Shown here piece by piece: positions 41,799 through 46,155 of a stretch of 64,000 nt of DNA. The stretch is from a virus: the IMG/VR virus record IMGVR_UViG_3300044825_003153, positions 6,928 to 70,927 of that record. One strand, given 5' to 3'. Position numbers and translations under genes: made by a program. Within the stretch, counting starts at the first letter, position 1. Each line of letters starts with the position of its first letter. The notes under the pieces were generated by a model, which was not told the origin of the DNA, did not search any database, and worked only from the letters and a program-made list of their open reading frames with translations.

Positions 41799-43495
41799 GG
41801 CAGGCGCCGCCTCAGGGCCGCCAGGACCGCCCGCTCCTGTCGCGCGAAGCCCTCGCGCAGGGCCGCGGCCAGGATCTCCTCGTGATGCCGCAGCCGTTGT
41901 TCGACCGCCTTCCAGGCTGTGTCGCGTGCGGCCTTGTCGGCGAGCTCGGCCGCGCTCTTCTCGTCCGGCAGCGGGATCGAGAGGCAGCGGCAGTTTATGT
42001 CGAGCTTGGGCTTGCCGAAGTCCCCCGGGTACATGGCCTCATTGCCCTCCCAGACGAAGGGCTTGTCGGCCTCGACGATCTGCCCGTCCAGCGCCGAATG
42101 AGCGTCGCGCACGAAGGCGTCGCGCGAGCTGAGCCACATCTTGCGCTCGACGTTGCCGCGGGCGATCGCCGCCTGCGCGCCGTAGCCGGCGGCGCGCGTG
42201 GTCTCGGTGCGGGCGATGATCTCGGCGCGCACGCCCTTCGCACGAGCGAAGACGCCGCGGATCGCCTTGACCAGCTTGGGGAAGGTCGGGCCGTCGCTGG
42301 TGACCTTCGCCATGGCGTCGGCCAGCTCGCGCCGCGTGGTCGTGCCGACCAGCTCCTTGATCCGCTCGGCGCCGAACTTCTTGAGGAAGTCCATCACCGC
42401 CGGCCGTTTGACCGTGAAGGACGCCTCGACGTCGATCACCCGATAGGTCCGGCGGCCGAAGTCCTGGATGATGTCCTCGATCGATTCCGCGGCCGCGGCG
42501 GCCAGATCCTCGTCGGGGACTTCGTCGCCGATGCCCTCATAGTTGCCGGGGTCGACCTTCAGCTCGAGCTCCTCGCCCCAGGTCGACTTCGTCGTCTTGG
42601 CCGGGCCCAGGATCACCTCGGGGCCGACCGTGATCGGGAAGTCGGGCAGCCGCTCGGGCACCGGACCGTCGTGGTCGTAGCTCACCGTGATGTGCGGCAG
42701 GTAGGCCGGGAAGCCGTGGACCGCGCCGGCCTCGGTGGCGCGCATGTTGCAGGCGCGGGCAAGCTGGCTCTCGACCACCAGCGCCAGGGCCCGGCCGTCG
42801 GCGCCCAGGCGCGCCCAGCGATAGGTTGCGGGATCCAGGGTCTCGACATCGTCGATCGGCTCACGGTCGCCCTCGCCCACCGTGCCGCCGTAGACCGTGG
42901 TCAGGTGGTAGGCCGGATGCAGCGTGGGCTTGGCCGGGATCACCAGGGGCATGATGCCGACCTCGCGGCACCAGTCGGCGAGCCGCTCGGGCTCCTGCAC
43001 TTCCAGCCAGGCGAAGACGGGCGTCGCCAGCCCGTCGTCCTCAGTAGGAAAAGGGGGCTCGGACTTGCCGTCCGCGCCCTCCTCGTCGCCTGCGCCAGTC
43101 TCCGTGGTCGCCCCCGTCGTGGCCGCGGCGAAGTCCTCGTCGCTGACGTCGAAGAACGGGACGTCGAAGCCCAGCTCGTAGAGCTGGTTCTGGTACTCGT
43201 CGACGTAGGTATCGACGACCTTCGTCCAGGCCTCGTCGAGCCCCTCGGCGGCATCGAGGTAGGTCGCCCATGCGCTCGGCGGCTGACTGAGCTCCGGGGG
43301 CTCGAGCGGGCTGGCGTTGCCCTTGATCGGGCTCAGCAGCTCGCCGGTATCGAGATAGTACCCGTCGGGCGCTTCCGGCTCCAATCCGAGCTGCGCCACG
43401 GCCTCCTCGCGCGTCAGCTGCCCGTCGGCCATGAACAGCTGCGTCACCGTGATGATCGGGTGCGGGCCACCGTCGAACACGGGGATGATGTTCAC
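41795..43495 (-). CDS. Fusion of an acidic N-domain, an Acb1-like 2H phosphoesterase and a MuF/SPP1 gp7 head morphogenesis domain
   Basis: HLTTVY and PHITVSY HxT motifs. MuF motifs RAEIIARTETTRAA...KMWLSSRD..VRDAHSALDG...PGD...DINCRC. Confidence 0.85.
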   Translation of the reverse strand: MNIIPVFDGGPHPIITVTQLFMADGQLTREEAVAQLGLEPEAPDGYYLDTGELLSPIKGNASPLEPPELSQPPSAWATYLDAAEGLDEAWTKVVDTYVDEYQNQLYELGFDVPFFDVSDEDFAAATTGATTETGAGDEEGADGKSEPPFPTEDDGLATPVFAWLEVQEPERLADWCREVGIMPLVIPAKPTLHPAYHLTTVYGGTVGEGDREPIDDVETLDPATYRWARLGADGRALALVVESQLARACNMRATEAGAVHGFPAYLPHITVSYDHDGPVPERLPDFPITVGPEVILGPAKTTKSTWGEELELKVDPGNYEGIGDEVPDEDLAAAAAESIEDIIQDFGRRTYRVIDVEASFTVKRPAVMDFLKKFGAERIKELVGTTTRRELADAMAKVTSDGPTFPKLVKAIRGVFARAKGVRAEIIARTETTRAAGYGAQAAIARGNVERKMWLSSRDAFVRDAHSALDGQIVEADKPFVWEGNEAMYPGDFGKPKLDINCRCLSIPLPDEKSAAELADKAARDTAWKAVEQRLRHHEEILAAALREGFARQERAVLAALRRRLP

Positions 43496-46155
43496 GGCAG
43501 AGCCTCCAGTTCGGAATCCGCCAGGATCTTGTCCACGATCTTCGACGCGCCGTTGAGGTACGCGGCATGTTGCCGAATTTCGCGCCTCTGGCGATTATCT
43601 AGCTCGTTCTTGGTGGTCTGATCCAGGTCGAATGCGCCCTTATTGTAGACGATGTAACGGTGTATCCTGCCGGTTACCCGGCCGGCGTAGACTTCGGCGA
43701 ACGTCTCCATGGGGTTCGTCGCGGCATACAGGCTTGCCTGCTCGCGATAGCCGGTGTTTTCCCAGCCGCCCATCTTCCGGTACTTCTTGTGATACTTCCG
43801 AAGATCCGCTTCGGTCGAGATAAACCAATCCTTGCGCTCGCCCTTCACCATGCCAATCGACAGGTCCAGTGCGTGAGCTATTTCATGGACGGCGTATTTC
43901 TTGACCTGATCCGGCGTGACAGCCCCGAACCCCTGTCGATCGGCCTTCTTGATGTCGGTGACGGCGATCTCGAACAGCTTCATCTGTCCCACCGGGGTGC
44001 GCGGGATGAAGATGCCGGCTGCGTTGGGGAGCTGCTTGGCAACCTCACCTTCCCACGCCTTGATGTTGATGCCGCCGATCTGCTCGTCTAGCAGACGACG
44101 GTGGCTTTCGGGTATCGCGGCAATCCCGTCCGCCACCGCCTGGCGGCCTTGGGGCGAGAATTTGCCGGCCTCGAAGTGATCCTCGGGGTTGAAGGGCTTG
44201 CCGGGCTTGTCGGCTGCGGTGACCGGCTTCGGCGCGGCGGGCGCGGCCGGCGCAGCGGGCTTGGCCGGCGCGGTCGGCGCGGCGGGCGCGGCGGGCTTGG
44301 GCGTGGTTGCAGCTGGCTTCTCGGCCGCCGAAGCTGCTGCGGCGTCGGCCTTGGCCTTCCTGGTCAGCCAAGCCTTCTGCGCCGCGGTCAGTGGCTTCTG
44401 GTCGCTCGGCGCGGGTGTGCTGGGCTTCTTCGCCGGGTCGGCGCCCTGTAGTCGGGCCTCGGCGTTCGCACGGCGCGTGGCAGCGGCGCGCTGCGCCGGG
44501 CTGAGGCCGCCCGTGGGCTTGGTCGGGATCTTGGGCGCAGGCTTCTTGTCGCCGCCGCCAGCAGCGGGCTTGTCGCCGGAGCCGCCCCCCAGCCGCCACT
44601 TGCCGTCCCTGTTGCGCCCGACCTTGCGCCAGCCGCCGTTGCTTCCGCCCTTGGCCTTCTCCTCGGCCTCGGGGTCGTCGTCCTCGTCCTTGCGTCGGAC
44701 CGTGTTGCGCTCGCGCCGATCCTCCAGCTCGATCGCGCGCCGGTGCGCAGTGTCGCTGTCCTCCACCGACCAGTCGCGCTGGGTGCGGGCGTCGATGCGC
44801 TGCCGCGCACTCTCGGTCTCGCCCTTCTTCAGGTCGCGCTCGAGGTTGCGGTTCGCCAGCTCGTCCTGGCGGCCGAAGTCCTTGTCCTTGGCCTCCTCGC
44901 CCAGCTCGTGCTGCTGCTGGTTGTTGGCCTGGTTCGGATCGTTGGCGACCATGGGCTGCAGGCGATCGCCGTCGGGCACCTCGCCATAGTCGATCTCGCC
45001 GCGGGTTTCGTTGAGCGTCAGGATCCCGGCCTGGAAGTCGGCACGAGCCTGTTCGCGCTTCACCCGACGCACGGGCTCGAGCGCGTCGATCGCCTGCCGG
45101 TCGTAGCGGATCTCGAGCTCGTCGTCGCCGTAGAGGCGCTGGAACCACGGATTGAGGTCGCCCAGCAGCCGGTCGACATAGGGCAGCACGGTGTGCAGCC
45201 AGAACTCGACCCGCGCGTTCTCGCGGTTGTTGTAGGTCGACTCGCCGGCGACCACCAAAATGTGGGGCACGTTCCACGCGGCACAGATGCGGCGGGCACT
45301 CTCGCCCATGCCCTCCAGCCACTGCATGTCGACCAGCGTGTCCGACATGCGGGTATAGGTCCAGTCGCCGCCCAGGATCAGGACCTTGCCGGCGTTCTGG
45401 GTGCCGCCGATCCGGCTCTGGATCTTGGCCTCGGCCTGGGCGATCTGGTCGTCCTTCAGGGGCTGCTTGAAGGCAGCCATGCCGGACATCACCGCGCCGT
45501 TCTGCAGCGTCCTGATGTTCAGGTCCGAGGCGGCGTTGTCCATGTCGATGTAGCGCGCGCCGGCCTCGACCGGGCTCATGCCGTACCAGTCGTGCAGCGG
45601 GTGGAAGGTCTTGATGTGCAGGAGCCCGATTGCTCCCGTGACCAGATCCACCGGGAAGTCGCGCGACTGGCCGTTGACCTCGTAGCGGTAGGCCTGAGGC
45701 ATCCCGAACGGGCCGGGGATGATCTTCATCCGGTCCGGGCGCAGGTTCCACAGCTCCTTGGGCGGCTGATCCGGCCCTGGCCCGACGTCCTCGATGTAGG
45801 CGTTGCCGGCCAGCAGATGATAGGCCACCAGCTCGCCCCACCAGTTGGCGCCGGTGCACATCGGGTTCTGGCGCTTCAAGAGCTTCTTGATCTCGTGCTG
45901 CTCGAGCTCCTGGTCGCCGGCGAAGGCCATCCAGCGCAGCGACGCCACGGCGTCGGCGATCAGCCGGACGCACAGGTAGGCGATGACGTTCTTGGCGTAG
46001 GCTTCGTCGGCCAGCCGGTCGTAGCGCCGCGGCGTGAACTGTGGCTGGCCCAGGACGTACTGCGAGATCAGCGGGCCAACGGCTGAGGCCTTGCGCTCAA
46101 GCACGCTGCTCCGCGACCAGTAGGGCACCTCGAAGCGCCGCAGCCCGCGCCGCAT
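43492..46155 (-). CDS. HK97-type portal protein fused through a long linker to a C-terminal HExxH zinc metallopeptidase-like domain
   Basis: Portal motifs (VRLIADAVASL, LLAGNAY, LWNLRPDRM, YGMSP, LTLNETR). C-terminal VHEIAHALD...NPMETFAE. Single 887-aa ORF. Confidence 0.9.
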   Translation of the reverse strand: MRRGLRRFEVPYWSRSSVLERKASAVGPLISQYVLGQPQFTPRRYDRLADEAYAKNVIAYLCVRLIADAVASLRWMAFAGDQELEQHEIKKLLKRQNPMCTGANWWGELVAYHLLAGNAYIEDVGPGPDQPPKELWNLRPDRMKIIPGPFGMPQAYRYEVNGQSRDFPVDLVTGAIGLLHIKTFHPLHDWYGMSPVEAGARYIDMDNAASDLNIRTLQNGAVMSGMAAFKQPLKDDQIAQAEAKIQSRIGGTQNAGKVLILGGDWTYTRMSDTLVDMQWLEGMGESARRICAAWNVPHILVVAGESTYNNRENARVEFWLHTVLPYVDRLLGDLNPWFQRLYGDDELEIRYDRQAIDALEPVRRVKREQARADFQAGILTLNETRGEIDYGEVPDGDRLQPMVANDPNQANNQQQHELGEEAKDKDFGRQDELANRNLERDLKKGETESARQRIDARTQRDWSVEDSDTAHRRAIELEDRRERNTVRRKDEDDDPEAEEKAKGGSNGGWRKVGRNRDGKWRLGGGSGDKPAAGGGDKKPAPKIPTKPTGGLSPAQRAAATRRANAEARLQGADPAKKPSTPAPSDQKPLTAAQKAWLTRKAKADAAAASAAEKPAATTPKPAAPAAPTAPAKPAAPAAPAAPKPVTAADKPGKPFNPEDHFEAGKFSPQGRQAVADGIAAIPESHRRLLDEQIGGINIKAWEGEVAKQLPNAAGIFIPRTPVGQMKLFEIAVTDIKKADRQGFGAVTPDQVKKYAVHEIAHALDLSIGMVKGERKDWFISTEADLRKYHKKYRKMGGWENTGYREQASLYAATNPMETFAEVYAGRVTGRIHRYIVYNKGAFDLDQTTKNELDNRQRREIRQHAAYLNGASKIVDKILADSELEALP

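Follow-up and report, generated by a model that had tools for sequence, protein, structure and literature searches.

Within a 64,000-nt stretch of viral DNA (positions 6,928 to 70,927 of IMG/VR virus record IMGVR_UViG_3300044825_003153; hereafter the window, to which all positions below refer), a single open reading frame (ORF) encodes an HK97-family portal protein that runs on, through a charged segment and a long basic linker, into a C-terminal domain bearing the paired HExxH and ExxA motifs of zincin metallopeptidases. This portal–zincin protein (P0001; 43492..46155, minus strand) is 887 aa long without an internal stop, and the gene that follows it (P0002; 41795..43495, minus strand) encodes an acidic N-terminal region joined to an Acb1-like 2H phosphoesterase and a MuF domain. 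Judged by alignment, the zincin module sits inside what the relatives of this phage have as one portal–Acb1–MuF gene, a point absent from the original prediction, which had been made from a first reading of the same DNA and which described a portal fused to a virion-carried protease.

Several lines of evidence establish P0001 as a portal. Pfam PF04860 (Phage_portal) matches aa 60-386 with an E value of 8.1e-62 and 209.7 bits against a cut-off of 39.1, spanning profile positions 4-318 of 321, and PHROG portal families match aa 39-493. The gene also holds the place in the head module that is expected of a portal, that is, directly after the large-terminase gene terL (46155..47768), whose stop overlaps the P0001 start, with an S78-type prohead protease and an HK97-fold capsid protein in the same ORF order. 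The portal part (aa 1-481; 44713..46155, minus strand) comprises the core (aa 60-386, 44998-45978) and a charged, helical-looking segment, and is common to relatives up to ...ELEDRR. There it gives way to an inserted basic linker (aa 482-654; 44194..44712, minus strand), which is G/K/R-rich and then P/A/K-rich, has an isoelectric point (pI) of 11 and a net charge of +20, and is absent in all aligned relatives; the distal 154 residues taken alone also have a pI of 11, and the Pro/Ala run is encoded by a 71-nt tandem repeat (44230..44300, minus strand; period 9/18/36). A Pfam match to CSLinker, a pyrenoid motif, also falls in the linker and was taken as chance. The chain ends in the putative gluzincin-like domain of 233 aa (aa 655-887; 43495..44193, minus strand), which opens with FNPEDHFEAGKF (aa 655-666; 44158-44193, minus strand). 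It contains HEIAH (aa 757-761; 43873..43887, minus strand), with two predicted zinc-binding His and the predicted catalytic Glu, and NPMETFAE (aa 814-821; 43693..43716, minus strand), in which E817-x-x-A820 would supply the third zinc ligand, 56 aa after H761.

The positions of these three motifs are exactly those originally given, and the Pfam match and uninterrupted 887-aa ORF bear out the description of a roughly 400-aa HK97-type portal continuing in frame through a charged segment and a P/A/K linker. A missed stop or frameshift between the portal and the last domain was looked for, and neither the ORF nor the codon-position pattern gave any. Specifically, GC content at third codon positions (GC3) in the P0001 frame is 0.85-0.98 over aa 1 to about 660 and 0.72-0.85 over aa 660-887, with GC content at second positions (GC2) far lower; because in-frame GC3 stays high throughout in this genome of 68% GC, a single frame codes over the whole length of the ORF, and nothing points to a frameshift.

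The arrangement was compared with that of homologous portals. Our survey admitted homologues of at least 488 aa and found 134 such long homologues with E <= 1e-10, of which 120 are listed. The five closest listed (P0004-P0008) are 69-73% identical by best local alignment and 887-892 aa long, and each is a single portal + Acb1 + MuF polypeptide without a zincin. P0004 is 64% identical to P0001 over aa 10-491 of the latter, and its aa 451-882 then continue onto P0002 at about aa 145-563, with 51% identity. When aligned with 11 relatives, everything from P0001 aa 482 to P0002 aa 144 (about 43064-44712, or about 550 codons) lacks a counterpart; at the insertion point the relatives have a linker of about 30 residues. 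These relatives have the same total length as P0001, which shows that this portal can accommodate about 470 additional residues at its C-terminus. A maximum-likelihood tree built from the portal parts nests P0001, with 100/99 support, in a clade whose 16 other sampled members all have MuF, or Acb1 plus ADP-ribosyltransferase, attached to the portal. Synteny extends beyond the portal itself: three relatives (L012, L016 and L017) keep the order terL / portal fusion / small ORFs / S78 protease / capsid, and terL is 62% identical to that of L012. Most simply, these differences would go back to one insertion in an ancestral fusion gene, by which the portal gained the zincin and Acb1–MuF was split off.

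As the extra segment brought with it a stop and a Shine–Dalgarno/GTG restart, portal–zincin and (acidic N-domain)–Acb1–MuF are now two translationally coupled proteins. At the junction between them (43492..43507, minus strand), GGAGG (43503-43507) lies 7 nt upstream of the P0002 GTG (43493-43495), which overlaps the portal TGA (43492-43494). The acidic region of P0002 (aa 1-144; 43064..43495, minus strand; pI 4.05, net charge -25) belongs to the extra segment and has no homologue in ESM Atlas (best score 0.81), Pfam or the word-indexed search. The remainder (41795..43063, minus strand) has its homologue in the C-terminal half of the portal fusions of relatives and matches Pfam Acb1 (E 3.7e-8, both HxT motifs present) and Phage_Mu_F (E 5.1e-12; MuF domain at aa 393-505); P0001 itself has no MuF match in Pfam. 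A -1 frameshift joining P0001 to P0002 was considered as the main route and rejected, because the -1 frame in which P0002 lies is open for just 36 codons upstream of the GTG, no X_XXY_YYZ slippery heptamer was seen there and the GGAGG–7 nt–GTG restart is strong.

Composition sets the last domain apart from all that surrounds it. Its GC content is 0.60, with a GC2 of about 0.40 and a GC3 of 0.777 that is the lowest in the window (z = -3.7 against other genes, taken as 216 segments of 145 codons; mean 0.921, standard deviation 0.039, minimum 0.779). The linker (GC3 0.884) and the acidic region of the neighbouring gene (0.924) are both ordinary, leaving the zincin as the only compositionally foreign part of the extra segment. 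These values confirm the AT-richer codons noted in the original prediction, and the outlying GC3 lends support to its suggestion that the domain was acquired later. Because the zincin alone is foreign, it would be the most recent addition, and the linker and acidic region may predate it, in which case the zincin could have displaced earlier cargo.

The window is part of a contig from a freshwater metagenome-assembled genome (3.7 Mb, 297 contigs, 80% complete); the 70.9-kb contig is siphovirus-like (RecT, tape-measure protein, GpJ-like tip protein), and no terminal overlap of its ends was found. With such a source, portal and zincin might not be one protein at all if a chimeric assembly had been joined at the Pro/Ala repeat or a frameshift had been missed, and the Logan contigs of the probable source run do break there, stopping at 44261 and restarting at 44315 (depths 12.5 and 15.5). 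However, this break coincides with a 71-nt repeat common to the Pro/Ala-rich genes of other organisms, which pile up on 44230-44300, and the same Logan contigs show no base difference or indel relative to the window. Unitigs from two sediment metagenomes of other studies (runs X4 and X5) cover 44113-44263 (zincin start and linker) and 44257-44407 (linker) with 100% identity, and further unitigs include one that crosses the left boundary of the extra segment (44594-44771) and another at 43986-44136. In addition, the frame is open where the zincin-side contig runs into the repeat, with its first ATG, GTG or TTG far upstream, the frame and GC3 pattern carry on across the join, and homology to relatives has already ended before the 120 linker residues on the portal side. 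No single record has at least 31 unique bases on both sides of the repeat; the join is supported piecewise and by the continuing frame, and we regard an artefact as very improbable. Because the sediment fragments are 100% identical, the phage, or a very close relative that carries this linker and zincin, also occurs outside the freshwater source sample.

We consider it likely, from profile matches and predicted structures, that the last domain is gluzincin-like, resembling MtfA and anthrax lethal factor. Sub-threshold Pfam matches to Peptidase_M90 (MtfA) and ATLF (lethal factor) both cover HEIAH and NPMETFAE, the former nearly gapless (70 residues onto 69 profile positions), and PHROG 4415, a "peptidase" family, matches the domain with an E value of 0.003. 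By ESM Atlas features (score 0.95), the top ten named neighbours all belong to the ATLF, M90 or Peptidase_Mx zincins, an outcome that is unchanged when the core (aa 685-845) is used alone; the neighbours include phage clusters and, lower down, one cluster with the MuF-type family Phage_min_cap2. The alignment-free ESM Atlas model reaches template-modelling (TM) scores of 0.51-0.61 to ATLF, M90, Peptidase_Mx and MuF-linked clusters. Shuffling that preserves composition produces an HExxH with an ExxA 36-75 aa downstream of it in 0.3-0.45% of cases, and the four catalytic/ligand positions (H757, E758, H761 and E817) are all intact. Seven residues ahead of E817 sits Y810, at what we take to be the position of the catalytic Tyr of lethal factor. 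The likeness to lethal-factor/MtfA zincins that had been proposed thus finds support in below-threshold profile matches and alignment-free predictions. In the sampled phylum, ATLF was found in 1 of 401 genomes. The sole non-self phmmer match of the domain, P0003 (940 aa), shares just a 17-aa repeat motif with it (at P0001 aa 665-682): P0003 is built from a unit of about 25 aa, repeated about 20 times and containing FSPDGRQA(V/I)ADG(V/I)ITLE, to which FSPQGRQAVADGIAAIPE in the opening part of the zincin domain bears a resemblance, and this likeness may reflect a shared short module or chance.

Cargo at the end of a portal is common in this clade. The original prediction had called a portal fusion of this kind unusual, which was not borne out: most of the 120 listed long homologues bear C-terminal cargo, and effector fusions have been published (PMC5512222, PMC9503650). 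The survey for variable C-terminal cargo that had been proposed as a check did find such variety, as portals 35-50% identical end, above Pfam thresholds, in ADP-ribosyltransferase, pesticin-type lysozyme, PBECR3, colicin E5 RNase, CdiA_C, RNase-A-like CdiA-CT, WHH/colicin DNase, DddA-like deaminase or GH108 lysozyme domains. Near-identical portals can have differing ends (P0042 with Acb1 vs. P0052 with PBECR3; also P0018/P0027/P0025), a hallmark that points to polymorphic-toxin-like cassette exchange. Among the 120 listed, P0001 is the only one with HExxH in a non-MuF tail. The toxin-domain portals are P0013, P0025, P0052, P0061, P0086-P0088 and P0102, and only some of these toxin-domain types are described on portals in the cited papers. 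In P0119-P0122, the portal profile match ends at position 248 of 321 with GH108 lysozyme and PG_binding_3 directly after it, so that the last part of the portal core seems to be replaced or interrupted by the lysozyme, which does not follow a linker.

We hold with moderate confidence that the domain is a capsid-internal, portal-tethered effector protease that is released and acts in the newly infected cell. Portals are dodecamers whose C-terminal crown points towards the capsid interior, and to our knowledge the C-terminus faces inward in all known portals. Up to 12 zincins per capsid would hang inside on linkers of about 250 residues—charged, then basic, and probably disordered—with the basic distal linker (154 residues) lying along the DNA. 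Acb1–MuF would dock separately via its MuF domain; the MuF protein of SPP1, gp7, binds the portal inside the head (PMC5576092). The zincin might then be cut off the portal by the S78-type prohead protease or by self-cleavage, and the freed zincin would leave with the DNA, as T4 Alt does. Once in the cell, the enzyme could have a host protein as its substrate, whose cleavage might serve counter-defence or takeover; host defence proteins are the target that the original prediction had suggested. The gene for the S78-type protease (40301..41002, minus strand), recognized by its counterparts in relatives L012, L016 and L017 (PF04586, Peptidase_S78), encodes a candidate enzyme for freeing portal-tethered cargo.

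A number of findings weigh against the reading as an ejected effector protease. Searches with phmmer against 1.84 billion cluster representatives returned no homologue but P0001 itself, the word-indexed 5.8 billion set, phage GenBank (tblastn), IMG/VR and NCBIfam gave no match and the PDB sequences gave chance FabH matches only; because the domain is a sequence orphan, conservation of its motifs cannot be checked. Both Pfam matches lie below their gathering scores (Peptidase_M90: E 0.013, 15.5 bits vs. 26.2; ATLF: E 0.061, 13.5 bits vs. 27.4). Modelling of the domain, suggested at the outset as a check, was divided in its outcome: the ESM Atlas model resembles zincin clusters at the TM scores given above, and AlphaFold2 run on aa 650-887 without an alignment yielded an unusable model (predicted local distance difference test, pLDDT, of 37). 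Given these sub-threshold scores and this pLDDT, we do not file the domain as a member of M90 or ATLF. Nor is delivery straightforward, as a domain covalently tied to the portal would have to be severed before it could leave the capsid, and there is no known cleavage site. Furthermore, the relatives do without the zincin, the P0001 sequence was present in none of the listed RNA runs, and the fused-first polarity of the proposed history is not proven because the length limit of the survey excluded unfused portals.

Other roles must also be considered. The zincin might instead be a processing protease that cuts head-internal polyproteins or linkers (its own or that of Acb1–MuF) in the capsid or just after ejection, and thereby frees other cargo. 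Such a function is proposed in passages of PMC5512222 for many MPTase domains of packaged polyvalent proteins, and here the zincin adjoins a two-domain cargo protein and its arrival coincides with the reorganisation of the fusion. Yet the five closest listed relatives keep portal–Acb1–MuF as one chain without a zincin, Acb1–MuF is in this phage already genetically apart from the portal, and an S78 prohead protease is at hand, all of which makes a processing role unlikely. The repertoire of the clade, whose portals bear CdiA-CT, colicin DNase and DddA-like domains, raises another prospect: a polymorphic-toxin-like cassette, with the zincin aimed at competing or superinfected bacteria and the acidic 144-aa region as its cognate inhibitor or immunity module. 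While it is suggestive that the extra segment holds a zincin and a strongly acidic orphan region with a stop and restart between them, the GC3 of the acidic region is host-like and that of the zincin is not, hence there is no obvious joint arrival, and no homologues of the acidic region, the putative inhibitor, were found; we rate such a cassette as rather improbable.

A non-catalytic role—whether in binding or titration, as a structural spacer, or as a functionless passenger of recent acquisition—strikes us as decidedly improbable. MtfA does offer a precedent, as it binds the repressor Mlc and acts as an anti-repressor by binding, its physiological substrate being unidentified (PMC13482132), and orphan status precludes a test by motif conservation. 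However, the four catalytic/ligand positions are intact, and 233 codons at 60% GC stay open with codon-position periodicity. It is also conceivable, if a distinctly long shot, that a protease/inhibitor pair is spread over the two head proteins, such that the acidic module of the MuF-anchored Acb1 protein silences the 12 portal zincins within the capsid, and these become active only once parted from it at ejection. If true, this pair would represent a capsid-internal toxin–antidote logic that also times the delivery of an enzyme against the cyclic-oligonucleotide-based antiphage signalling system (CBASS).

Elsewhere in the window, about 590 bp (41003-41588, minus strand) without a convincing ORF separate the 69-aa gene after MuF from the prohead protease gene. 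At the start of this interval, in the midst of the head genes, are two strong hairpins that resemble terminators (41567-41547 and 41437-41412), both with a T-run after them; at the same spot relatives have variable small genes or a 395-aa gene, and Rfam found nothing here or anywhere else in the window. Beside the small terminase gene lies a GC-rich (up to 0.78), strongly strand-skewed tract of short repeats (48200-49300; Tandem Repeats Finder units of 10-18 nt) with no credible ORF. Two tRNA calls by ARAGORN, 98-99 nt long, are probably spurious.

Head-packaged enzymes are the first phage proteins to meet host defences, and almost none of the predicted portal or MuF cargo has been tested. The present system offers a natural before-and-after pair for studying how portals gain cargo (i.e., one portal–Acb1–MuF chain vs. 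an added zincin and a split gene). It would also place a protease at fixed stoichiometry, up to 12 per virion, beside the better understood Acb1-like nuclease cargo, in an alphaproteobacterial-type portal clade that bears a polymorphic-toxin-like repertoire directly on the portal. Since the concept is already published, its value is as a good test case instead of a new principle.

Among known systems, two offer precedents for enzymes delivered from the head and for the catalytic domain itself. The internal proteins of T4 are loaded via a capsid-targeting peptide that is removed by the prohead protease. Alt, as cited in passages of PMC5512222, is likewise a head-packed enzyme injected with the DNA; these T4 proteins are free, however, whereas the putative effector here is a covalent extension of the portal. 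With MtfA (M90) and lethal factor (ATLF), the domain shares the HEXXH...EXXA pair, and these families give its best, though weak, profile matches and its nearest predicted-structure neighbours. The gluzincin motifs of MtfA lie at 148-152 (HEXXH) and 211-214 (EXXA; PMC13482132), for a His-to-Glu spacing of 59 aa vs. 56 aa here. On the other hand, the domain scores below the family thresholds and has neither the N-terminal context of MtfA nor the translocation context of a toxin.

The MuF polymorphic toxins, defined by Zhang et al. (2012, PMC3482391) and Jamet et al. (2017, PMC5576092) and predicted to be packaged in the head and delivered with the DNA, provide a close parallel in organisation, and about 20% of them are metallopeptidases (PMC5576092). 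In both cases a head-internal carrier at or beside the portal ends in an exchangeable enzyme domain, and an exchangeable end on a conserved carrier is what the differing ends of the clade and the outlying composition of the zincin indicate here. The carrier differs, being the portal itself (12 copies per virion, vs. 1-2 of SPP1 gp7/MuF), with MuF on the next protein, and no separate small immunity gene follows the zincin.

Packaged polyvalent proteins are a further point of comparison, the zincin-like MPTase being their commonest domain according to passages of Iyer et al. (2017, PMC5512222). The same passages describe fusions of PBECR, 2H and InPase domains to portal or MuF, for which injection is predicted, as well as lysozymes in portal proteins, and propose that 2H fusions destroy defence nucleotides; 2H, Nudix and ADP-ribosyltransferase (ART) domains are likewise reported as fused by Iyer et al. 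(2022, PMC9503650). The zincin domain of ArdC, in a passage of PMC7213743, is a protease that is transferred and matters for escape from restriction. What these MPTase domains would have in common with the domain in P0001 is an HExxH helix and a downstream Glu helix (both predicted here), a place in a protein transferred with the DNA and a proposed effector or self-processing role. In contrast to polyvalent proteins, which combine at least two effector domains in a virion-associated chain, P0001 has one predicted enzymatic domain beside the portal, which matches the "simplest architectures" named in PMC5512222, with a single effector on portal or MuF, and its sequence is unrelated, at a detectable level, to the described clades.

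The nearest counterparts remain the portal–2H(Acb1)–MuF fusions of P0004-P0008, a class covered by passages of PMC5512222 and by PMC9503650, which share with the present system the portal lineage, the synteny of the head genes, the Acb1 and MuF parts and the length of the protein. They are one chain without a zincin, whereas here a linker, zincin, stop, restart and acidic region intervene and two proteins result. Fusions of effectors to portal or MuF are thus known, having been published in 2017 and 2022, and the passages of PMC5512222 on portal fusions make no mention of a portal–zincin architecture. New in the present case are a portal that directly bears an orphan zincin on a chain lacking MuF, the separation of the fusion into two genes, and the presence of Acb1–MuF as a paired neighbour.

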